Origin: Sedimentisphaera cyanobacteriorum
GTDB taxonomy: Bacteria; Planctomycetota; Phycisphaerae; Sedimentisphaerales; Sedimentisphaeraceae
Reading direction: 5' to 3'
NCBI RefSeq assembly: GCF_001997385.1
Contig: NZ_CP019633.1
Coordinates: 1,440,001 to 1,472,000 of the forward strand
DNA: 32,000 bases
The translations under genes were made by a program, and so were the position numbers. Shown piece after piece: positions 3,378-29,620 of the stretch (the stretch's first letter is position 1; the number at the start of each line of letters is the position of its first letter). The notes below the pieces were generated by a model. The model was not told the DNA's origin and did no database searches. It was given only the letters and a program-made list of their open reading frames with translations.

Positions 3378-4433
3378 CTAATCGAGCATTTCTCTGAGCC
3401 TCGAACATACATCCTCAACGCTTGCTTCGCTGAATTCAGAGAAGCTTTTTTCCGGCTGAACAGTTATGTTTGCCCTGCCCCCCAGCGGGGAAAATCTGTT
3501 AGGATCGGTTTTCCCGAAAACAGCAAGCACCGGCAGCCCCATAAGCCCTGCCAGATGAGTTACGCCCGAATCATTACCAAGAAAGATATCCGTATGGGTA
3601 AGCAGGCTCACTGCCTGTTCAATGCTGAGCCCTGAAAGCACAGCCCCAGCGTTTTCAAGACGCCGCACATCATCGCAGGTGAAACGCTCCTGTTCAACAT
3701 AACCAAGCAGGAAGATTGGCCTAAAGCCTTCTGATGAAAGGATTTGAGATGCTTTGATAAAATTCTCAATATGCCAGCACTTAAATCCCCCTCCGCTGCC
3801 AGGGCATATCACTACAAGCCTCTCTGAGCCCTTCAGCCCAACACTGCGGCTTTGCAGCATCTCCCGCCCAGCGTGAACATCGTTTAAGTTTGCCAAAATA
3901 AGCGATTCGTGCTGCTGGTGGAGGTATTTATGCGGATTGTCAATGCCGAAAGCCTCTAATGAAACAAGCTTTCTGTTGAAGAAACTTTCCAGATAAAACC
4001 GGCTTATATGGCCTTGGTAATCCTCCGGCGGGCAGGCAGGAATAATCGAAATCTCAGGCGCGGAGCTAAGGCATGCAGTTACAGCAAGATTAGCTTCAAA
4101 ATCACTCCCCTCCTCGCCCATAAAGCTGATTATCCAGTCGTAAAAGCTGAATTTCTCTGCAAGGTCTTTCTCCGCTGAAGGATCGAAGTCTTTGCTCGGC
4201 AGAAAAAGCCTTGATATGCTGGCTGAGCTTATATCGCTTATTCTGTCTATGCTCGTTCTTCCCGGGAAGAAGGATATGTTCCTTATCTGGCCGAAAAAAT
4301 CGATGCTGGCAAGGCCGAGGCGGGATTTGAGGTAGTCTGCAAGTTTAAGCGTTAAGATGCAGTCGCCCAGAGCTCCCGGGTGGAGAATGAGCCCCCTGCC
4401 TCTGGTTACCATATCATCATAATAGTAAAACAT
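3378..4433 (-). CDS. Glycosyltransferase family 9 (heptosyltransferase-like)
   Basis: LILHPGALGDCILT near the N-terminus, VVICPGSGGGFKCW, and LGNDSGVTHLAGLMGLPVLAVFG are GT9 hallmarks. Confidence 0.8.
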   Translation of the reverse strand: MFYYYDDMVTRGRGLILHPGALGDCILTLKLADYLKSRLGLASIDFFGQIRNISFFPGRTSIDRISDISSASISRLFLPSKDFDPSAEKDLAEKFSFYDWIISFMGEEGSDFEANLAVTACLSSAPEISIIPACPPEDYQGHISRFYLESFFNRKLVSLEAFGIDNPHKYLHQQHESLILANLNDVHAGREMLQSRSVGLKGSERLVVICPGSGGGFKCWHIENFIKASQILSSEGFRPIFLLGYVEQERFTCDDVRRLENAGAVLSGLSIEQAVSLLTHTDIFLGNDSGVTHLAGLMGLPVLAVFGKTDPNRFSPLGGRANITVQPEKSFSEFSEASVEDVCSRLREMLD

Positions 4434-4827
4434 ATATCTAATACCATTAACTGATTAAACAGTTTTAATTTTGCTGCATAAATTATTCTCGCCCACAATA
4501 ATAAGCATAAATACTTCAAAAACAATATACCTTTCCATATTTGCAGCTCACTCGGGGGTGTTTTCAGCAGGTTTTCTCGGTTTTAGTCATCTTTTGCAGC
4601 TTGATTTAGAGCCTCCCGTAAATATTGTGTTATAAGGGCTTTGAGATGATAATTTGGGCAGGATTATCCGATCAGCTTTAGTATTTTTTAGCCATAAAAT
4701 GCATAATATGGTTGTTGAATTTCAAACAAGAAATATAATCGGCTTTTTAGTGAACCATAGAGCCTGGATAGGCGTATGATTTTTTATAAGTTATCATTGC
4801 TAACAGTGTTATTATTTAATAAAAAAA

Positions 4828-6276
4828 TTGAGTTTTTCCAAGAAAAATACAATAAACATTTTGCTGTTTTCCCTTATTGCGTTCTGCTGCGAACCTTTGT
4901 CCGGAGCAGATATTTTAAACGGAAGTTTTGAGATTTTCGACGAAAACGACCCAAACCTCTTTGAGCAAAGCTGGGAAACAACGAATTCAGTTCGATGCGT
5001 CTCTTCATTTGGGACTGCAGATGTATCTTTTGAGTACAGTCAGGCCTCTCAAGTAGAGTGGGATTTAGATCCTGCACAAGCTGTTCACGGGGATTACTTC
5101 GCAGTTCTTTCTACCGGTGATACGGGCTCAGACGACGGGGATTCTATTATGGCAGAGATACGTCAAAAGATCACTTTTCAGCCCGGAGAAGTGATTGGCG
5201 GCGTTTATTATTTTGCAACAGCCGACTACTACGGCTGGAATGATTATGCCAAAATAACACTAAATCCCGCAAGCAGAGAGAGGGAAACAGACCTCTCTAC
5301 TATCGAGATTGAATTCGAAAACGGCAAAACCGAGATGGATGTGGAAACCGTTGGTGATTTCCGTTCAATGGAAAACTGGAGCACGTTCGAATATGAGTTC
5401 ACTGAGCAAACAGCGGGCGAATACTACCTCACCTGCGGCGTTTACGACCGAAACGACCGTATATACAAGAGCTATCTAATGCTTGATAACTTTTATGCAG
5501 GCCTGCCGCAAAGGCTGCGAATCAAAAACTATTTAGAAATTTCCGGCTCTCAGATAGTCTCCAGAAAGATAGATATAAGCAGAAAAGACGACAGATATCC
5601 CAACGCAAAGGACGGATACGATCTCTCGGACAAATGTTTATCCGACACAACTGAGGAAGCCGTTATTTACTCGGATGTTACATATTACAACGACCCCAAC
5701 GACCCCAACAGCTTATCGCTTGATGTGCGTTCAGAAGACAGCACAGCGCCCTACTACCTGAAACTCAGCAGCTACGGAAATTTCAGAGAGCAAACTTCCA
5801 ACAACCTTATATTCACATTCCAGGGAGAGGCCCCCGCATTCGGCGGCAGCTCTATCTTATTCCAGCAGACAAGCAGCCGAGGCACGCCTGAAGACCCCAA
5901 CGGGCTGAATGAATTCTATCCGTTATATGACGTCAGAGCTGCTATAGAAGGCAATGAGGGGGTTATACCTCTAAAAGACCTGCCCCCCGGAGAATACAGA
6001 CATTCAGAGCCATACGGAAGCGGAGTTCTATATATAGGGAACCGCATCCTGGCAGATTTCAACGAAAGCAGCAAGGCTGATATGGAAGACTTCAGCATAC
6101 TTGCAAGAAACTGGATGAATCACCAGATACCCGCCGGCTACAAAAACTTAACTGCAAACATTTCAGGGGCAAACGGGATTCCCGACTATGAGGAGGAAAA
6201 GGCAAAGATAGACCTATGCGACCTCAAGGCACTTAGCTCAGACTGGACAAAAGAGTGCAGAAAGATTGAAGAATAG
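4828..6276 (+). CDS. Secreted hypothetical protein (signal peptide, N-terminal NGSFE-type jelly-roll-like region, two degenerate dockerin-like C-terminal repeats)
   Basis: TTG start. Hydrophobic leader INILLFSLIAFCCEPLSGA. ILNGSFE follows directly. C-terminal DMEDFSILARNWMN and IDLCDLKALSSDW segments. No family recognised with certainty. Confidence 0.6.
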   Translation: MSFSKKNTINILLFSLIAFCCEPLSGADILNGSFEIFDENDPNLFEQSWETTNSVRCVSSFGTADVSFEYSQASQVEWDLDPAQAVHGDYFAVLSTGDTGSDDGDSIMAEIRQKITFQPGEVIGGVYYFATADYYGWNDYAKITLNPASRERETDLSTIEIEFENGKTEMDVETVGDFRSMENWSTFEYEFTEQTAGEYYLTCGVYDRNDRIYKSYLMLDNFYAGLPQRLRIKNYLEISGSQIVSRKIDISRKDDRYPNAKDGYDLSDKCLSDTTEEAVIYSDVTYYNDPNDPNSLSLDVRSEDSTAPYYLKLSSYGNFREQTSNNLIFTFQGEAPAFGGSSILFQQTSSRGTPEDPNGLNEFYPLYDVRAAIEGNEGVIPLKDLPPGEYRHSEPYGSGVLYIGNRILADFNESSKADMEDFSILARNWMNHQIPAGYKNLTANISGANGIPDYEEEKAKIDLCDLKALSSDWTKECRKIEE

Positions 6277-18210: not shown

Positions 18211-19056
18211 TTATTTTTTCTCGTAAACGTTAATGTCTTCGCTTACATACTCCCTGAGCTTTGCCTGAACGACATCTGTGAGGGTAAGCTCTGCCATTTT
18301 GCAGTTTGCGCACATTCCTCGAAAAGCCACAATCACATCGTCGCCCACAACATCTATCAGATCAAGGTCTCCGCCGTCTGCCTTGAGCGACGGGCGAACC
18401 TGCTCGTTGATAATCTCCTGAATGAGCTGAATCTTCTGGATGTTGGTGAGGTTTTTGGGGCGTTTGGGCTTCTGTTCACCGGATTCTTTTTTCTCCCCGC
18501 GCACACGCTGAATAATCTTTTCGATCTCGCCTGTGCAGCCGCCGCAGCCCCCGCCGGCCTTGCAGTAGTTGGTTACCTGCTCAACCGTTTCAAGATTGTT
18601 ATCCCGAACAACCTCCTCTATCTCATGATCGGTGATCCCGAAACAGGTGCAAACCACATCACCCTCCATCTCGTGGGTAACGGTTTCCCCTGTTCGGTAG
18701 TTCTCGATTGCCGCCTCAAGGGCCTCTTTGCCCATTACAGAGCAGTGCATCTTCTCATCCGGAAGCCCGCCGAGAAAATCAGCGATGTCCCTGTTTGTTA
18801 TGCTCTCTGCTTCCTCGAGCGTTTTGCCCTTTATAAGCTCTGTGAGAGCTGAAGAAGAGGCAATCGCAGAAGCGCAGCCGAATGTCTGAAATTTAACGTC
18901 TTCAATTTTGCCCTCGTCATCGAGTTTGAATGTGAGCTTAAGGGCATCTCCGCATGCAAGAGAGCCTACCTCGCCCACGCCGTCAGGATTCTCAACCTCG
19001 CCCACATTCCGTGGATTGAGGAAATGTTCTTTTACTTTTTCTGCATAGTCCCACAT
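18211..19056 (-). CDS. nifU: Full-length NifU Fe-S cluster scaffold (IscU-like, BFD-like [2Fe-2S] and Nfu C-terminal domains)
   Basis: GSLACGDALKL / FGCASAIASS / MHCSVMG (IscU-type Cys). CTCFGITD...CKAGGGCGGC (BFD-like). GMCANC (Nfu CxxC). Confidence 0.92.
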   Translation of the reverse strand: MWDYAEKVKEHFLNPRNVGEVENPDGVGEVGSLACGDALKLTFKLDDEGKIEDVKFQTFGCASAIASSSALTELIKGKTLEEAESITNRDIADFLGGLPDEKMHCSVMGKEALEAAIENYRTGETVTHEMEGDVVCTCFGITDHEIEEVVRDNNLETVEQVTNYCKAGGGCGGCTGEIEKIIQRVRGEKKESGEQKPKRPKNLTNIQKIQLIQEIINEQVRPSLKADGGDLDLIDVVGDDVIVAFRGMCANCKMAELTLTDVVQAKLREYVSEDINVYEKK

Positions 19057-19082
19057 ATTTTATCTCCTGTGCAGGTGTTTTA

Positions 19083-19367
19083 TCATATTTTTTTTATTTT
19101 CTTTATCATAGCCTGCCTGAGCTCGTCGGGCAGCTTTGCCCAGATGCATATATCAACACTGAAAGGCATCTGATCAGCAAGCTCTTTTTTTATCTGCTTC
19201 AATATCTTTTTGTCCGGCTCGCTGTCTCCCATCAAAACCAGATCAAGACCCGGGGAGAGCTCGGGGAGGCTTTCGCCTTCCGCAAAGAACCTGATCTCAC
19301 TGCCTGGAAGATTCTTCTGGAATATACCCTTGATAGTATTTAATTGTTCAATAGTAATCTTATTCAT
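19083..19367 (-). CDS. Small minimal-nucleotidyltransferase (MNT/Pol-beta superfamily)-like protein with degenerate catalytic motifs
   Basis: The layout resembles MNT antitoxin-like proteins. IRFFAEGESLPELSPGLDLVLMGD sits where hG[GS]x9-13Dh[DE]h is expected, and a C-terminal PFSVDICIWAKLPDELRQAM segment is present. The start is probably ATG 19367 (AGGGGA SD). The ORF-track GTG is at 19406. Confidence 0.4.
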   Translation of the reverse strand: MNKITIEQLNTIKGIFQKNLPGSEIRFFAEGESLPELSPGLDLVLMGDSEPDKKILKQIKKELADQMPFSVDICIWAKLPDELRQAMIKKIKKI

Positions 19368-19461
19368 TTCATTCCCCTGAGGAGAAAAAACATCATTGCT
19401 TTTCACGATTAAAAGTAGATGATAACAAAATTGACTGCTGTTTTACAGGATTTTTAACTAT

Positions 19462-20547
19462 ATGCTGCTGAGAAACGAAATGATATTAAATGCACAAATA
19501 AATAATTTCAAAGCATTAAAAAACATATCTGTTTCAGACATAGGCAGAGTTAATCTGTTTGTAGGCAATAACAGTTCCGGCAAATCTACCCTTTTAGAAG
19601 CATTATACCTCGCTTCCAGCAGCAATCCTGTTAGAGCTGTTATAGATATTAACAATTTCCGAGGTATCAGTCAGCTCGATAAATATCCATGGGACACATT
19701 CTTCACCAGCTTTAACACTAAAAATGAACCTCAGATAAAATCAGAATTCACAGAGAAAACTGTTACAACACAGATCGAGCCTTTCCTGCCAGACTATAGG
19801 CATATAGAAACCGACCCCGAAGAGAGCTTTAACAGTGATTATTTCAGCAGCAGCATCTCAGGGCTTACTCTGAATATAAGCGAGTTTGATAGAGATAAAA
19901 ATAGGGATGGACGCAAAAGCTCTCAAACTATCAAATTCGACCATAAAGAAGGCAATGATTTGGTTAAATTTGGTATTCACGGAAGAGAACCTGATTTCCT
20001 GAGATTTACCTCAAGTTTGTTTATTACAGGCAAAGCAAATCTTATCAGCAAAATGCCTCACTTTATTACTAACCTCAAGATAAATAAGCAGTTAGATGCA
20101 GTCATTGAGATTCTGAAAAACTTTTCACCGTCAGTAAACAATCTTGAGATAGGCAGCGATTCAATCTACGTTGATATTGGGGAATCCAAACTTTATCCTA
20201 TCGGAGTGATGGGGGATGGTTTTGTGAGGTTTCTGGCTATCTCTCTGGCCATAATCAGCTCTGGGAGGAAAGTGATCCTTATTGATGAAATCGACACAGG
20301 GCTGCACTATTCTGCACAGTTCTTCTTATGGGAGGCTATCCTGAAGCTTGCAGAAAACAATAATGTGCAAATTATGGCTGTAACTCACTCCATAGACTGC
20401 ATATCAAGCTTTGCCAAGGCAGGAAAAAAATCCAGCGAAAAAACAAAAATGTACCGACTTGAAAAAGAAGACGACAAAAACTTCATAATAGACTACAATG
20501 TTGATGAAATTCAGTCTGCAATTGAGAAAGAGTATGAAATGAGGTAA
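19462..20547 (+). CDS. ABC-type (AAA_15/AAA_21-like) ATPase, OLD/AriA/PtuA-like
   Basis: Walker A G35NNSSGKST43 (nt 19564-19590). Signature-like M250GDGFVRFL. Walker B V271ILIDEID278. H-loop AVTH309S. The N-terminus ...INNFKALKNISV.D.GRVNLFVG is typical of this family. The start may be the second ATG at 19480. The gene is AT-rich. Confidence 0.8.
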   Translation: MLLRNEMILNAQINNFKALKNISVSDIGRVNLFVGNNSSGKSTLLEALYLASSSNPVRAVIDINNFRGISQLDKYPWDTFFTSFNTKNEPQIKSEFTEKTVTTQIEPFLPDYRHIETDPEESFNSDYFSSSISGLTLNISEFDRDKNRDGRKSSQTIKFDHKEGNDLVKFGIHGREPDFLRFTSSLFITGKANLISKMPHFITNLKINKQLDAVIEILKNFSPSVNNLEIGSDSIYVDIGESKLYPIGVMGDGFVRFLAISLAIISSGRKVILIDEIDTGLHYSAQFFLWEAILKLAENNNVQIMAVTHSIDCISSFAKAGKKSSEKTKMYRLEKEDDKNFIIDYNVDEIQSAIEKEYEMR

Positions 20548-20553
20548 AGTTAA

Positions 20554-21174
20554 ATGCCTTCAATTGAACTGGAAAAAACTGAATCGGAGATTGTTTTCAT
20601 TGTGGAAGGAAAGGACGATGAGATATTTCTGAATTCTTTTATTAAAAAAAGAATAACCGAAGATGACAGTTTTCAAATAGTTCAGCTTAAAGGCAAAAAA
20701 AATCTCAAACAAACTTTGAAGGATGTTTCAAAAATCCCTGGTTTTAGGAAAGTGCGGAGATTAGCCGTCATCATTGATGCAGACAATAGTTGTGAAAACA
20801 CATTTAAAAGTATTAAAAACGCTCTTTCGCATACAGGCTTCCCTAAGCCGGAAAAACTCGGCGAATTCACTTCAGACAGTGAAAGAAAGCTTTCAGCAGC
20901 CGCATATATTATGCCGAACTGTTGCGGCGAGGGCGAGCTCGAAGATCTTCTGCTTTCTTCAATAGAAGATACTCAAGCCTTAAACTGCATTGATTCTTTT
21001 TGGAACTGCATAGGCAAGGAGAGAAAAACTTCCAAAGGCTCTGCTCAAATCTATCTTGCCAGCAGAGAAAAATTTACCAGCGGAATTGGAGCAGGTGTTC
21101 AAAGGAAATACTTTATCCTAAAATCGAACAAATTCAGCAAACTCCAAACCCTTCTAAAGCAGGCATTTCTATAG
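20554..21174 (+). CDS. Small TOPRIM-like protein (DUF3226/DUF4435/OLD-nuclease-like), putative effector
   Basis: IVFIVE18GKDDEIFL, then AVIID75AD77NS (nt 20776-20784), then GEGELEDLLL. This is the E...DxD...E arrangement of TOPRIM domains. Lies 6 nt after the ATPase stop, with a GAGGT SD inside the end of the ATPase gene. Confidence 0.6.
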   Translation: MPSIELEKTESEIVFIVEGKDDEIFLNSFIKKRITEDDSFQIVQLKGKKNLKQTLKDVSKIPGFRKVRRLAVIIDADNSCENTFKSIKNALSHTGFPKPEKLGEFTSDSERKLSAAAYIMPNCCGEGELEDLLLSSIEDTQALNCIDSFWNCIGKERKTSKGSAQIYLASREKFTSGIGAGVQRKYFILKSNKFSKLQTLLKQAFL

Positions 21175-21444
21175 ACCCCAAACTCTTCCCTGCGTTATTT
21201 CATTTTCATAGAGAGGCTTAATATCTTTGTCAGAGATATTGTTAATAATTATTAATTCATTTGAAATTGGTTCATAAGCAGCCTCAGCGGCATAAGCCAT
21301 ATTATTACATTTAGGGCAATTTTCCATATTACCCACAGACTGAAATTTTCTTGGATTTCCAATACCGCCAATCATTCTTGAACAAAAAATTGTTGAGCAA
21401 TTTTTGCATCTTGACAAAGGGGTGTAAGTTTTTTCTGACATCAT
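21169..21444 (-). CDS. Zinc-ribbon hypothetical protein
   Basis: C13KNC16 ... C43PKC46 pairs. A strong GAGGTGA SD lies immediately upstream of the ATGATG start. A 91-codon ORF in very AT-rich DNA is unlikely by chance. The stop overlaps the TOPRIM-like gene stop in the palindrome CTATAG. Confidence 0.55.
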   Translation of the reverse strand: MMSEKTYTPLSRCKNCSTIFCSRMIGGIGNPRKFQSVGNMENCPKCNNMAYAAEAAYEPISNELIIINNISDKDIKPLYENEITQGRVWGL

Positions 21445-21625
21445 TCACCTCATCTTTAAAAATATTATTACAAAGATGGAAATATTATAACATAACAATT
21501 AAATAAATCACGCTGAATATTTATATTTTATTGGGAAACATGCTGCAATTGAATTGATTGATATTTGAATTTAAGATTATACAATGGATCATTGAAGAGG
21601 ATTATATCTAAAAGGAAGAATAAAC

Positions 21626-22120
21626 GTGTATAGAAAAGACATCACTGCGGTATTTCCGGGCTCATTCGACCCGATAACCAACGGCCATATAGACGTAATC
21701 GAAAGAGGACTAAAGATGTTCTCGCGGGTTGTGGTTGCGGTAGGTGAAAATTCCGTAAAAACTCCGATTTTCACGGGCGATGAGCGAGTTGAGATGATAC
21801 AGGAGCTCTTTACAGGCCGGCCAGAGGTAGTTGTGGAAAAATACGAGGGTCTTACGGTTGAATATGTAAAGAGCATCAAGGCCGATGTAATGCTCAGGGG
21901 CCTGAGAAACCTTACCGACGTTCAATATGAATTTCAGCTGGCCATGACCAACCGCTCTGTTGCCGGTATCGAAACGGTTTTTGTGATGACGAGTGAACAA
22001 TTTGGGTTTGTAAGCTCTACACTAATAAGAGAAATGGCCAGTTTAGGCGGTGATGTATCGAACCTTATCCCGCAGAATGTATTTAAAAGGCTGCAAACTA
22101 GAAATAAAGAAAGTTCGTAG
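21626..22120 (+). CDS. coaD: Pantetheine-phosphate adenylyltransferase
   Basis: AVFPGSFDPITNGHIDVIERG (T/HxGH motif) and ...SSTLIREMASLGGDVS. GTG start with an AAGGAAG SD. Confidence 0.92.
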   Translation: MYRKDITAVFPGSFDPITNGHIDVIERGLKMFSRVVVAVGENSVKTPIFTGDERVEMIQELFTGRPEVVVEKYEGLTVEYVKSIKADVMLRGLRNLTDVQYEFQLAMTNRSVAGIETVFVMTSEQFGFVSSTLIREMASLGGDVSNLIPQNVFKRLQTRNKESS

Positions 22121-26313: not shown

Positions 26314-27888
26314 TTATTTGGCGAATTCCACGCATTTGACCTCACGCAGGAGAGTAACCTTAATCTCGCCCGGATATGTCATTTCATTTTCAATCTTAGT
26401 GGCGATATCACGTGCAATCTTCTCGGCAGAATTATCATCAATCTCGTCGGCATTAACAATTACCCTAATCTCTCTACCCGCCTGAATAGCATAGGTTATG
26501 GAAACGCCCTTGAAGCTGTTTCCAATCTCCTCGAGGGAACGCAGTCGCTTGATGTAGCGTTCGAGGGTTTCTCTTCTTGCTCCCGGGCGTGATGCGCTGA
26601 TAGCGTCTGCGGCTGCCACAAGAGGGGTGTACGGGTTGTCCGGAGCAATGTCTCCGTGGTGCCCTGCTACTGCATTTAGAACGACAGGGCTTTCATTAAA
26701 CTTTCGGAGGAATTCAGCACCAATGGCTGGATGGCCGCCTTCGTGTTCGTGGTCTATGGCCTTTCCGATATCGTGCAGGAAGCCTGCGCGCCTTGCCATG
26801 CTTCCGTCGAGCCCAAGCTCATCAGCCATCACCTGCGAGAGATACGCCACTTCAATACTGTGCTGAAGGGCGTTCTGGCCGTAGCTTGAGCGGTACCTCA
26901 AAACGCCAATCTTACCGAGAACTTTATTCGAAAGCCCGCGGACATCCATCTCTGTAGCAGTTTCCTTGCCAATCTGGAGCATACGCTGATCAACGTCTTT
27001 TCTGGTCTGTTCAACAAGACCTTCGATATGAGTAGGATGGATTCTGCCGTCTTGGATAAGCCGCTCCATCGTGAGCCTTGCCACTTCCCTTCTTACCGGA
27101 TCAAAGCCGCTTACGACAATCACGCCAGGGGTGTCATCAACGATCACATCCACGCCGGTGGCCTTTTCGAAAGCCCTGATATTCCGCCCTTCCCGTCCGA
27201 TAATACGGCCTTTCATATCATCATTCGGGATGTCAACGATTGATACGGTGGATTCGCAGCACTGCTCGGCTGAGAACCTCTGGATAGCAGAGCTGATAAT
27301 CTCCCTGCTCTTTCTTTCTGCGGTCTCGTTCGCTTCCTCAACCTTCTTGCGGATAACGACATTCATATCGTGCTCGCATTCATCCTCGAGCCTTTGGAGA
27401 AGCAGCTCTTTGGCCTCCTGAACATTCATCCCCGTAATCTGAAGAAGCACCTTCTTCTGCTCGGCAATAATATCTGTAAGAGCGGTTTCCCTTGCAGAAA
27501 GGCGTTTCTGCCTTTCCTGAATCTCGTTCTGTGAAACAGCAATCTCTTTTTCCTTCTCTGCGAAGAGTTCAGTCTGCCTTTGGTTCGCATCTTCTCTTTT
27601 GCTTAGCCGTTTCTCCTGATCTCGCAGTTCTTTTCGAACCTGATTGCACTCCTTTTCGAATTCCTCACGCCTTTTCATAAATTCAGAGGATGCATCGATT
27701 CTTGCGGTTTTAAGGATTTCTTCAGCTTCTTTTTTTGCTTCTTCGGTTTGTTTGTCTAATTTGTGCTTTAGTGTCTGCTGCTTTGCCACAGCAATCGAAT
27801 GGATTACGGCAAAAGTTGCAATTGCCGAAACAACTGCAGCGCCGCCGCCAACTAAAATTGGCGAAATTGCTAATATATTTATTAACAT
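26314..27888 (-). CDS. rny: Ribonuclease Y
   Basis: N-terminal TM anchor, coiled-coil region, KH domain (MKGRIIGREGRNIRAFE) and HD domain (HSIEVA...GFLHDIGKA). Confidence 0.95.
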   Translation of the reverse strand: MLINILAISPILVGGGAAVVSAIATFAVIHSIAVAKQQTLKHKLDKQTEEAKKEAEEILKTARIDASSEFMKRREEFEKECNQVRKELRDQEKRLSKREDANQRQTELFAEKEKEIAVSQNEIQERQKRLSARETALTDIIAEQKKVLLQITGMNVQEAKELLLQRLEDECEHDMNVVIRKKVEEANETAERKSREIISSAIQRFSAEQCCESTVSIVDIPNDDMKGRIIGREGRNIRAFEKATGVDVIVDDTPGVIVVSGFDPVRREVARLTMERLIQDGRIHPTHIEGLVEQTRKDVDQRMLQIGKETATEMDVRGLSNKVLGKIGVLRYRSSYGQNALQHSIEVAYLSQVMADELGLDGSMARRAGFLHDIGKAIDHEHEGGHPAIGAEFLRKFNESPVVLNAVAGHHGDIAPDNPYTPLVAAADAISASRPGARRETLERYIKRLRSLEEIGNSFKGVSITYAIQAGREIRVIVNADEIDDNSAEKIARDIATKIENEMTYPGEIKVTLLREVKCVEFAK

Positions 27889-28304
27889 ACCAGATTACCT
27901 TTCAATTGTAAGTCGCTCAAAAGTGCAATAGAAATCCGGCGTGGTGAGACGTATAATAGACCCGCAGGGCCTATTGAGATTAAATTTCCGCGCACAACGG
28001 CTCTAAGGCCTGCGGAAAGGCTTCAAATAGAAGGTTGAAAAACGTATATTTGAACATTTATTCAATATTCAGTTCCTGTAGATACAAATTTTCTGCCTAT
28101 TTTTGATTTCAACTATTATTACAGACCACCACAAGGTCTGAATGCTATTACACTTATAAAATTTATTTAAAACTATTTCCCAACAAAGGGAAACAGTTAG
28201 ATAATAAATTTGAGGAATGCAAAAATCAAGTAAAATGTTTTGAATTTCTTAGAGAAAAGCTAAGCATGTAATGAAAATCTGGTTTTTATCCGTAGAAACA
28301 GCAA

Positions 28305-28484
28305 TTACTGCTTCTCAGAATCTTTCTCGTGTATGCTGTCGTAAACTTCCTGTCTGTGCACAGTAACATCCCTTGGAGCCTGAACCCCAAGCTTCACCTT
28401 GCCGCCCTTAACATCAACAACTTTTATTACCACATTGTCGCCGATGACTATAGATTCGTCTTTTTGTCTGCTCAAAACCAGCAT
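28305..28484 (-). CDS. csrA: Carbon storage regulator CsrA (59 aa; below the ORF-track length cut-off)
   Basis: Hand translation of the minus strand gives [59 protein letters not shown]. This is collinear with E. coli CsrA (MLILTRRVGETLMIGDEV...GVNAPKEVSVHREEIY). GGAG SD about 8 nt upstream. Confidence 0.9.
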
Positions 28485-28624
28485 TCGGGGACTCCGTTCA
28501 CCGTATTATTATACTTTAAGCGAAGAGCATTATAAACTATCGGTCAATGAAAACAAAGAAATTATTTAAACTAAATAACTTTCTTTCAATCCGATTTAAT
28601 CAGGCTGCCTCCTGCCTGCCGAGA

Positions 28625-29620
28625 TTAGAACTGATCGAGAAAACGCAAGTCGTTTTCGTAGAGCAGTCTTATATCGTATATGCCGAACTTCCGCATTGCG
28701 AGTCTTTCGATGCCAAGCCCGAAAGCCCAGCCCGTATATTTTTCGCTGTCTATACCGACAGAATCAAAGACGTTCGGATCTACCATGCCGCAGCCGCCAA
28801 TCTCAATCCACTGCTCTGAGCCGTCTTTATTATGGAAAAGAAGGTCGATCTCAGCGCTTGGCTCAGTAAACGGGAAAAAACTCGGTCTGAAACGCCATTT
28901 GGTATCCTCGCCGAAGAAAGTTCGGACAAACTGATCGACGGTTGTTTTGAGGTCTATCATGGAAACTCCCTCATCAACAACAAGCGCCTCAATCTGATGG
29001 AACATAAACATATGAGTTGCATCAACCGTATCCGGGCGGTAAACCCTTCCGGGAGCTACAACCCTTATAGGGGGCTTCTGAGACTCCATAACCCTGATCT
29101 GGATTGTGGATGTCTGGCTTCTAAGAAGGGTGTTCTCATCAATATAGAAATTATCCGCAGGGTCTCTTGCGGGGTGTTCATCAGGGATATTCAGAGCGAT
29201 GAAATTATGCCACTCATCTTCCACTTCCGGCCCGTATGCGATGCCGAAGCCCATCCTGCCGAAAATATCCAGCAGCTCATTTACAGTGTTTGATATTACA
29301 TGCTGCTTGCCTACTGCCGGCTTGAGCCCAGGAAGGGTAACGTCTTCAATCAGTTTCTCGGCCTTGCCGGATTCGCCGCCGGAAAGGCTCTTCTGCTTCT
29401 GCTTGAAGGCCTGATTTACTTCATTTTTAATCTTGTTGGCAAGTTTGCCGGCCTCTGCTCTATCTTCCGGGGCAACCTCGCCAATCTTGCTGAGAAGCTT
29501 GGTAATCAGCCCTTTCCTGCCGAGATACTTAATCCGGTACTGCTCAAGGGCTTCACTGCTTTGAACCTGCTCAAGCTCCTGCATGGCCTCTTTGCCGGTG
29601 TTTTCAAAATCTTTAAGCAT
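28625..29620 (-). CDS. pheS: Phenylalanine--tRNA ligase alpha subunit
   Basis: HPARD..DNFYI, RSQTS.IQIR, GRVYR.D..DATH...FHQIE, and FFPFTEPSAE...GCGMV.P.V class II motifs. Confidence 0.95.
   Translation of the reverse strand: MLKDFENTGKEAMQELEQVQSSEALEQYRIKYLGRKGLITKLLSKIGEVAPEDRAEAGKLANKIKNEVNQAFKQKQKSLSGGESGKAEKLIEDVTLPGLKPAVGKQHVISNTVNELLDIFGRMGFGIAYGPEVEDEWHNFIALNIPDEHPARDPADNFYIDENTLLRSQTSTIQIRVMESQKPPIRVVAPGRVYRPDTVDATHMFMFHQIEALVVDEGVSMIDLKTTVDQFVRTFFGEDTKWRFRPSFFPFTEPSAEIDLLFHNKDGSEQWIEIGGCGMVDPNVFDSVGIDSEKYTGWAFGLGIERLAMRKFGIYDIRLLYENDLRFLDQF

Follow-up and report, generated by a model that had tools for sequence, protein, structure and literature searches.

A two-gene ABC ATPase and TOPRIM pair in a low-GC islet of Sedimentisphaera cyanobacteriorum: a probable split-OLD/PARIS-like conflict module of the PDC-M38/DUF3226 family

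What are two adjacent genes doing in a low-GC islet on the chromosome of Sedimentisphaera cyanobacteriorum (Planctomycetota, Phycisphaerae), flanked by housekeeping genes on both sides? The question concerns a 32 kb stretch of this chromosome (hereafter the window), in which gene A encodes an ATPase and gene B, identical to protein L21SP3_01150, encodes a TOPRIM-like protein. An earlier note on this DNA had proposed that the two genes form an undescribed anti-phage module. Based on matches to existing profiles, the locus is a member of the PDC-M38/DUF3226 family, a candidate family already listed in PADLOC (PDC-M38) and Pfam (DUF3226). By analogy with characterized systems of similar build, it is probably a two-gene conflict module of split-OLD/PARIS-like type that was gained by horizontal transfer, with a role in defence or abortive infection. 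The evidence comes from the two proteins, their conserved pairing, their carriage on mobile elements, and their comparison with known systems. The coordinates of all features are collected in Table 1.

Gene A carries a Walker A motif (G35NNSSGKST), a signature-like motif (M250GDG), a Walker B motif (V271ILIDEID), and an H-loop (T308HS). Residues G35, N37, K41, G251, D275, E276, G280, Q303, and H309 were found to be invariant in 71 homologous gene pairs, and the protein is predicted to be a catalytically intact ABC ATPase. In Pfam, only ABC-type ATPase families were matched, and no other domain was found. The scores for AAA_15 (E 5.9e-22, 79.2 bits) and AAA_21 (E 9.9e-22, 78.8 bits) are both above their cut-offs. 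The AlphaFold2 (AF2) model, with a pLDDT (predicted local distance difference test) score of 88.2, contains a short helical hairpin and no long coiled coil. Its top Foldseek matches have E values between 1e-13 and 1e-11 and template modelling (TM) scores of 0.45-0.53; they are GajA (8X5I), the heads of SMC and Rad50, retron Eco8, PtuA, and Thermus OLD (with OLD 6P74 included). Pfam, AF2, and Foldseek therefore agree with the earlier description of gene A as an ABC/SMC-type ATPase without a further domain. Moreover, a profile built from 46 homologues was compared with the sequences in the PDB. The retron I-A ATPase 9N69 (1.9e-16) and the Septu protein PtuA 8EE4 (3.8e-16) were matched, the latter over nearly its full length, and OLD, AriA, and GajA scored lower.

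Two details of gene A call for revision, its public name and, probably, its start. The protein is named "recombination protein F" in NCBI. Since the RecF model TIGR00611 reaches 38 bits, far short of its cut-off of 172, and aligns to residues 10-59 only, the label is judged to be wrong. In addition, translation of gene A probably begins at M7 (ATG at 19480), which would give a protein of 355 aa, as residue 7 is the first to be aligned both within the family and in the PADLOC models.

Gene B had been described as TOPRIM-like, with a resemblance to DUF3226, DUF4435, and the C-terminus of OLD. It contains the motifs VE18GKDDE, IID75AD77N, and G127ELEDLL, and matches Pfam DUF3226 (PF11536) at E 1.1e-26 and 94.4 bits (cut-off 27). 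The alignment spans residues 15-205 of gene B and positions 4-207 of the 208 in the model. OLD-like_TOPRIM was also matched, at E 8.7e-5 and 23.4 bits, just over its cut-off of 23.2. DUF4435 reached 14.3 bits, under its cut-off of 27, and aligned to residues 12-78 only; no RloB match in Pfam was found at E <= 1. The AF2 model has a pLDDT of 94.3 and a predicted TM score of 0.90. Among solved structures, Foldseek ranked highest the TOPRIM regions at the C-terminus of OLD from Xanthomonas and Burkholderia (6NJX, 6NJW, 6NJV, and 6NK8; probability 0.97-1.00, E 4e-4 to 5e-3), together with retron Eco2. From the model, gene B is predicted to fold as an OLD-type TOPRIM. Thus the TOPRIM-like character and the resemblance to DUF3226 and the OLD C-terminus were borne out, whereas the resemblance to DUF4435 fell below threshold. 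The UniRef name of gene B, "DUF4435 domain-containing", likewise looks wrong in view of the 94.4 bits for DUF3226 against 14.3 for DUF4435.

In both proteins the motifs exceed by far what chance would produce. The catalytic residues of gene B are strongly conserved. E18, D75, and E130 are invariant in the 71 pairs, K161 is found in 70 of them, and position 77 is D or E in 67. With this acidic metal-binding set (E18, D75/D77, and E130) intact, gene B is a putative metal-dependent nuclease. Two cysteines, C145 and C152 (20986-21009), lie on one helix and are kept in 49 and 47 of the 71 pairs, respectively, and in at least 90% of a closer set of 52 B-family members. Two cysteines alone are insufficient for a zinc site.

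When a profile of the 52-member set was compared with the PDB sequences, a single match was obtained, the Pyrococcus horikoshii protein PH0156 (2P62; E 1.3e-5), and no AriB or OLD chain was found at E <= 10. The match runs through the VEGK-D and RD-D motifs. PH0156 is an uncharacterized structural-genomics protein of 241 aa, and it adds no functional information. In a paper on the lactococcal plasmidome, the same structure was the top HHpred match of a validated lactococcal AriB of the DUF4435 family. As the nearest solved relative of both, 2P62 thus links DUF3226 and DUF4435 as TOPRIM families that are remote sisters.

The two genes are also tightly coupled. At the junction (GAAATGAGGTAAAGTTAAATGCCT), the TAA stop codon of gene A occupies 20545-20547 and the ATG of gene B begins at 20554, leaving a gap of 6 nt. 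A GAGGT sequence at 20541-20545 overlaps gene A at its 3' end and is 8 nt 5' of the gene B ATG, an arrangement that indicates translational coupling. The coordinates and lengths of the open reading frames (ORFs), the motifs, the 6-nt gap, and the GAGGT coupling given in the earlier note are all present in the sequence. Promoter-like sites in the operon numbered 13, compared to 8.1 +/- 2.9 in shuffled sequence, and so are not above expectation. A terminator scan of the operon found none after gene B.

Further analysis revealed that this arrangement is widely conserved. When gene B was searched exhaustively with HMMER, E <= 1e-3 was reached by 1,937 clusters (at 50% identity) and E <= 1e-10 by 760. 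A word-indexed homologue search with gene B alone returned a single non-self relative. Nearly all B-family proteins are 190-235 aa long, with a median of 210 aa. The idea that gene B is a "minimal" protein, shorter than AriB, did not survive this comparison: 206 aa is a normal length for the family, and gene B is not a shortened AriB. One B-family representative of 443 aa contains two matched stretches, and could be a tandem duplication or a TOPRIM fusion.

To follow the pair as a unit, 80 genome loci were retrieved with the ATPase profile, of which 78 have room downstream for a second gene. A B-family ORF was found directly 3' of the ATPase on the same strand in about 71 of the 78. The stop codon of A and the start codon of B overlap or lie a few nucleotides apart, with typical gaps of -4, -1, 0, and +2 nt. 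In sampled contexts of ATPase and B homologues, the ATPase was followed by DUF3226 in 7 of 7, one of them with a shortened B. Moreover, the pairwise identities of A and B correlate across the 71 pairs (Pearson 0.75, Mantel p <= 0.001). By these comparisons, genes A and B form a conserved, co-evolving unit whose pairing is near-obligate, in line with the earlier expectation that homologous pairs would be co-conserved. The closest relative of the Sedimentisphaera pair has 46% (A) and 44% (B) identity and lies in a different gene context.

The loci without an intact B contain a frameshifted B remnant or a transposase, or have lost the gene, and they look like decay. An alternative partner was considered for these loci and rejected, as none was seen among the exceptions. 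In the Thioflexithrix copy, B is frameshifted after the VEGKDD motif, and in a copy from an alphaproteobacterial metagenome-assembled genome a transposase follows the ATPase in place of B.

Is the family new? Membership in PADLOC systems was judged by matches to individual hidden Markov models of PADLOC-DB. Gene A matches the PDC-M38A model PDLC04611 at E 6.9e-51, over residues 7-361 and model positions 1-383 of 383. Gene B matches the PDC-M38B model PDLC04623 at E 2.1e-15, over residues 14-205 and model positions 5-218 of 219. The gene order of PDC-M38, an ATPase followed by a small protein, is the same. Across the B family, PDC-M38B and DUF3226 are matched by 52 of 52 members, OLD-like_TOPRIM by 29, and AbiLii by 3; AriB (PADLOC, E <= 1e-5) and DUF4435 (Pfam, E <= 1e-3) are matched by none of the 52. 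The suggestion of an undescribed module or a new family can therefore not be upheld, given that gene B is a full-length DUF3226 protein and both genes match PDC-M38 end to end.

PDC-M38 originates from a preprint that listed 145 PDC systems ("phage defence candidates") taken from genes lying inside BREX, DISARM, and type I restriction-modification (RM) systems (Payne et al., 2024; 10.1101/2024.01.29.577857). It is based on two cassettes of an ATPase followed by a small protein, seen 84 and 66 times (Payne et al., 2024). These source cassettes were embedded in RM, BREX, or DISARM systems, whereas the Sedimentisphaera copy is not so embedded. In the literature searched, neither an experimental record of the family nor a main text that names PDC-M38, DUF3226, or the accessions of the plasmid homologues was found. 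The two-gene ABC ATPase and TOPRIM class has been discussed as diverse and mostly unexplored. Compared to validated systems, the DUF3226 pair family is a candidate variant of a class that is already known.

A second PDC-M38A model in PADLOC, of 715 positions, matches gene A at model positions 387-703 only. On several IMG/VR contigs, ORFs of approximately 720-750 aa match the A profile without being followed by a clear B gene. These ORFs may be variants with a fused extra N-terminal domain, an idea that fits the partial match of gene A to the 715-position model.

How does the pair relate to the systems that have been characterized? A similar architecture is that of PARIS, in which a split ABC ATPase is likewise followed by an OLD-type TOPRIM effector and which is also carried by mobile elements. 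The description "split-OLD / PARIS-like" used in the earlier note is apt. The ATPase families that mark PARIS, AAA_15 and AAA_21, are shared by gene A; they are generic and common to many systems. Gene A matches the PADLOC AriA models at 4.5e-26, and gene B matches AriB partially, at 2.8e-5 over its N-terminal 67 residues. Based on their near-identical lengths, the PADLOC AriA and AriB models appear to be the generic Pfam models AAA_21, AAA_15, and DUF4435. However, both proteins belong to families other than those of PARIS: unlike AriB, gene B has no DUF4435 match at threshold, and the B-family profile gave no match to AriB in the PDB. The proteins of PARIS are also larger, at 464 aa for AriA and 306 aa for AriB compared to 361 and 206 aa here. 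AriA aligns to the A-family profile over its C-terminal ~80 residues only. AriA has been described as a hexameric propeller with a long coiled-coil insert, whereas the model of gene A predicts a short helical hairpin at that place.

The AbiL system of Lactococcus (AbiLi/AbiLii) and RloAB of Campylobacter are likewise two-gene systems in which an ABC ATPase is paired with a TOPRIM/OLD-like protein. The best PADLOC match of gene A is in fact the AbiLi model PDLC02336 (1.5e-57, full length). This model has 340 positions compared to the 453 aa of lactococcal AbiLi, and may not represent the original protein. Gene B lacks a full AbiLii or RloB match; against AbiLii PDLC02338 it scores 3.9e-5 over residues 45-158 and model positions 8-85 of 125. 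The comparison with AbiL was made through these models and the published length. The earlier note had allowed for the pair turning out to be canonical PARIS or AbiL, and a check found neither the DUF4435 partner of PARIS nor the AbiLii/RloB partner of AbiL.

Members of the OLD family (class 1, P2 and Thermus OLD; class 2, GajA; class 3, retron Eco8) share the TOPRIM acidic residues with gene B. For B, the structures that match best come from this family, and for A its members rank among the closest (GajA, Eco8, and 6P74), at TM scores of about 0.40-0.48. In OLD proteins the ATPase and TOPRIM are fused into approximately 520-600 aa, whereas here they are two ORFs with a stop codon between them. 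The GajB helicase of Gabija has no counterpart in the islet, and no retron reverse transcriptase or non-coding RNA was found nearby. PtuA of Septu and retron I-A is among the closest solved sequence relatives of gene A; the Septu partner is the HNH nuclease PtuB, whereas no HNH gene is present here and the partner is a TOPRIM protein. As the earlier note had observed, the ORF and Pfam scan revealed neither a helicase nor an HNH partner. Finally, HEC-01, which is embedded in Hma systems, has the same architecture, and the family FAM_00005 is common to HEC-01 and one PDC-M38 cassette. Both genes have weak HEC-01 matches (for gene B, HEC-01B at 4.3e-6 over its N-terminal half), and the TOPRIM partner of HEC-01 belongs to a different family. 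In sum, the locus lacks defining features of PARIS, AbiL, OLD/Gabija, Septu, and RecF.

The distribution of the pair is that of a mobile cassette. Hosts are found in Planctomycetota, Bacteroidota, Spirochaetota, Chloroflexota, Cyanobacteria, Acidobacteriota, and Proteobacteria, and in methanogenic archaea, in a patchy pattern at 25-35% identity. ColE1/ColRNAI plasmids of 3.8-4.2 kb carry the pair in Salmonella, E. coli, and Klebsiella pneumoniae (NZ_AP026957.1, NZ_CP024435.1). On a 3.8 kb ColE1-type Salmonella plasmid from PLSDB it is the sole cargo besides mobilisation and Rop genes. The same is true of a 4,167-bp ColRNAI plasmid of K. pneumoniae, where only Rop and a helix-turn-helix gene accompany it. 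Approximately 130 Klebsiella plasmid records contain the homologous ATPase, with the partner gene verified on two plasmids. Among 5,426 complete E. coli genomes the enterobacterial version is rare: a single genome has it, and there a plasmid carries it.

In viral sequence data, the intact pair is present on 31 IMG/VR contigs. Within three positions of it are phage genes for portal, large terminase, baseplate, scaffold, head protease, integrase, NinB, and DinI. The same interval also holds DNA methyltransferases, a type II restriction enzyme, ShosA, and PD-Lambda-5_B. A tblastn search of the INPHARED reference phage genomes with gene B gave no match, and a comparison of gene B with the BFVD structures gave no significant one. 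These findings show a mobile cassette, exchanged among genomes, small plasmids, and prophages.

In Sedimentisphaera, the pair lies in an islet with a GC content of 0.367, flanked by DNA of 0.497 (left) and 0.464 (right). No other 2.57 kb segment of the 32 kb has a GC content as low (mean 0.463, standard deviation 0.031), in agreement with the low-GC accessory insert that had been proposed. The locus is probably horizontally acquired, and the low-GC islet reflects its accessory character. To the left, nifU ends at 19056 on the minus strand, with nifS also on this side; to the right, coaD starts at 21626 on the plus strand. No tRNA, integrase, or credible boundary repeats were found at the islet, and no tRNA or Rfam match was found in the window. 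Repeats at the islet edges were considered as boundaries and rejected, being short, AT-rich, and at the level of chance matches.

Table 1. Features of the locus, with positions in the 32 kb window.
Feature	Position	Strand	Description	Source
Gene A	19462-20547	+	ABC ATPase of the OLD/GajA/PtuA/SMC-Rad50 class, 361 aa	ORF list
Gene A motif positions			Walker A G35-T43; signature-like G251-x-G253; Walker B 271-276 (D275, E276); D-loop G280/H282; Q303; H309	
Coupling junction	20541-20556	+	GAGGT Shine-Dalgarno in gene A 3' end, gene A stop, gene B ATG	sequence
Gene B	20554-21174	+	DUF3226-family OLD-type TOPRIM protein, putative metal-dependent nuclease, 206 aa	ORF list
Low-GC islet	19057-21625		GC 0.367; the pair and two small unrelated ORFs, between nifU and coaD	composition
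107-aa ORF	19083-19406	-	Divergent from gene A, in the islet; weak Pfam Polbeta (nucleotidyltransferase) match at E 0.072 only; GC 0.42	
91-aa CxxC...CxxC ORF	21169-21444	-	Convergent with gene B, overlaps the last 6 nt of gene B	

Two further ORFs share the islet with the pair. The 91-aa ORF is zinc-ribbon-like, with two CxxC pairs; it has the lowest GC in the islet (0.337, and 0.272 at third codon positions) and is without a family match. Both small ORFs were considered as third components of the system and rejected, as neither recurs beside the pair in approximately 150 other loci. Elsewhere in the window, two more stretches have a GC content near 0.40 (window mean 0.46), at about 4000-5500 and 27500-29000. 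The second surrounds the gap between ORFs ending at 27888 and 28625.

If the pair is a conflict module, how would it work? PARIS is likely the template. In PARIS, AriA sequesters AriB, binding of Ocr releases AriB, and AriB cuts tRNA-Lys. If the pair resembles PARIS, P2 OLD, and Gabija in its mechanism, the ATPase would dimerize or oligomerize and keep the nuclease inactive while surveying for an infection cue. Once the cue is sensed, an ATP-dependent rearrangement would free or activate the TOPRIM nuclease, which would then cut nucleic acid. A tRNase activity has been reported for P2 OLD too, and GajA and class 1/2 OLD proteins cut DNA in vitro; the substrate may therefore be of either kind, tRNA (the AriB and P2 OLD case) or DNA (the case of GajA and the class 1/2 OLD proteins). 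Cleavage would stop translation or replication, and the infection would be aborted. As long as the cell is resting, the two proteins would act like a toxin and its antitoxin. If a phage protein is sensed, the mode of sensing probably differs from that of AriA, because the model of gene A has a short hairpin at the place of the coiled-coil sensor surface of AriA.

Several observations weigh against this defence reading. No other defence genes, integrase, or tRNA are nearby in the window. The likeness of gene B to the OLD TOPRIM is significant and at the same time loose (TM ~0.40), and the PARIS AriB chain 8UX9_A appears only at rank 33 of its Foldseek matches (E 0.044). The PDC systems are explicitly candidates, predicted from embedding, and HEC-01, itself an ABC ATPase and TOPRIM pair, protected against none of the phages tried (Payne et al., 2024). 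In chromosomes, a scan of 138 immediate neighbours, two genes on each side of about 37 loci, placed type I RM methylase and specificity genes beside the pair in 2 of the loci. A few others had a zeta toxin, ResIII, or a C5-methylase beside the pair, and the remaining neighbours, which are the majority, are unrelated housekeeping genes. The association with defence genes in these ~37 loci, seen without a clean control, is thus present but weak.

A rival explanation is an addiction or competition module of mobile elements. Here gene B would be a nuclease toxin and gene A its antitoxin, and the pair would stabilize small plasmids and prophages or exclude rival plasmids, with the Sedimentisphaera copy being a stranded remnant. 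We consider this unlikely, though worth taking seriously. Mechanistically it overlaps the conflict module described above and differs in the selected function. It would account for the pair being the sole non-replication cargo of the ColE1-type plasmids of Klebsiella, Salmonella, and E. coli, for its presence inside prophage-like contigs, and for chromosomal copies mostly without defence neighbours. Moreover, PARIS itself acts as a type II toxin-antitoxin pair, although this behaviour and defence are not mutually exclusive. Set against it are the validated systems of the same architecture (PARIS, OLD, Gabija, and AbiL), which are anti-phage, and the loci embedded in type I RM systems. The invariant ATPase motifs also suggest active sensing over simple sequestration.

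That the locus is canonical PARIS or an AbiL member of the lactococcal type is quite improbable. The strong match of gene A to AbiLi and its match to the AriA models point in this direction, as do the weak AriB and AbiLii matches of gene B and its UniRef label. However, the DUF4435 score of gene B lies well under its cut-off, the B family contains no AriB or DUF4435 match and only three to AbiLii, and the B profile finds neither AriB nor OLD in the PDB. AriB ranks low among the structural matches, AriA is aligned over its C-terminal end alone, and the PADLOC models behind the PARIS matches seem to be generic Pfam models. The sizes of AriA, AriB, and AbiLi differ as well. A housekeeping couple for DNA repair or recombination, in which a RecF- or Rad50-like ATPase would act with a RecR- or Mre11-like nuclease, is more improbable still. 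It was suggested by the name of gene A in NCBI, by the resemblance of its fold to Rad50 and SMC heads, by the housekeeping neighbours nifS/nifU and coaD, and by the occurrence of TOPRIM domains in RecR. Against this, the RecF model aligns to some 50 residues near the start of gene A at a score far under its cut-off, and the pair is patchily distributed at low identity and travels on tiny plasmids and prophages. Its low-GC islet, the different context of its closest relative, and the existence of solo or decayed copies likewise speak against a housekeeping role. The split-OLD/PARIS-like conflict module with a defence function therefore remains the probable explanation.

What, then, does this locus contribute? 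Through it, a large, catalogued candidate family of split ATPase-TOPRIM pairs gains a representative in Planctomycetota (Phycisphaerae), and a specialist would not be surprised by it. The locus also allows two labels to be corrected, that of gene A ("recombination protein F") and that of gene B ("DUF4435"). The more useful result lies at the level of the family, in its near-obligate pairing, co-evolution, retained catalytic residues, and carriage on tiny plasmids and prophages.

A further possibility, which we regard as tentative, is that the DUF3226 pair constitutes a mechanistically distinct and very widespread branch of ABC ATPase and TOPRIM immunity. Its trigger and substrate would be its own, unlike those of PARIS (Ocr and tRNA-Lys), P2 OLD, and Gabija. 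If so, the branch would comprise at least 1,900 clusters (at 50% identity) in bacteria and archaea. A near-minimal ATPase of 355 aa without the AriA coiled coil, together with a 206-aa effector containing the cysteine pair and the invariant lysine, would represent a new solution to sensing and activation, and the Klebsiella plasmids of ~4 kb would serve as vehicles dedicated to defence. The small size of the DUF3226 pairs and their native copies on small plasmids make the family easy to study. It is therefore tractable for asking whether all ABC ATPase and TOPRIM pairs work like PARIS, a question raised by the authors of the PARIS work, and what a near-minimal ATPase sensor recognizes.

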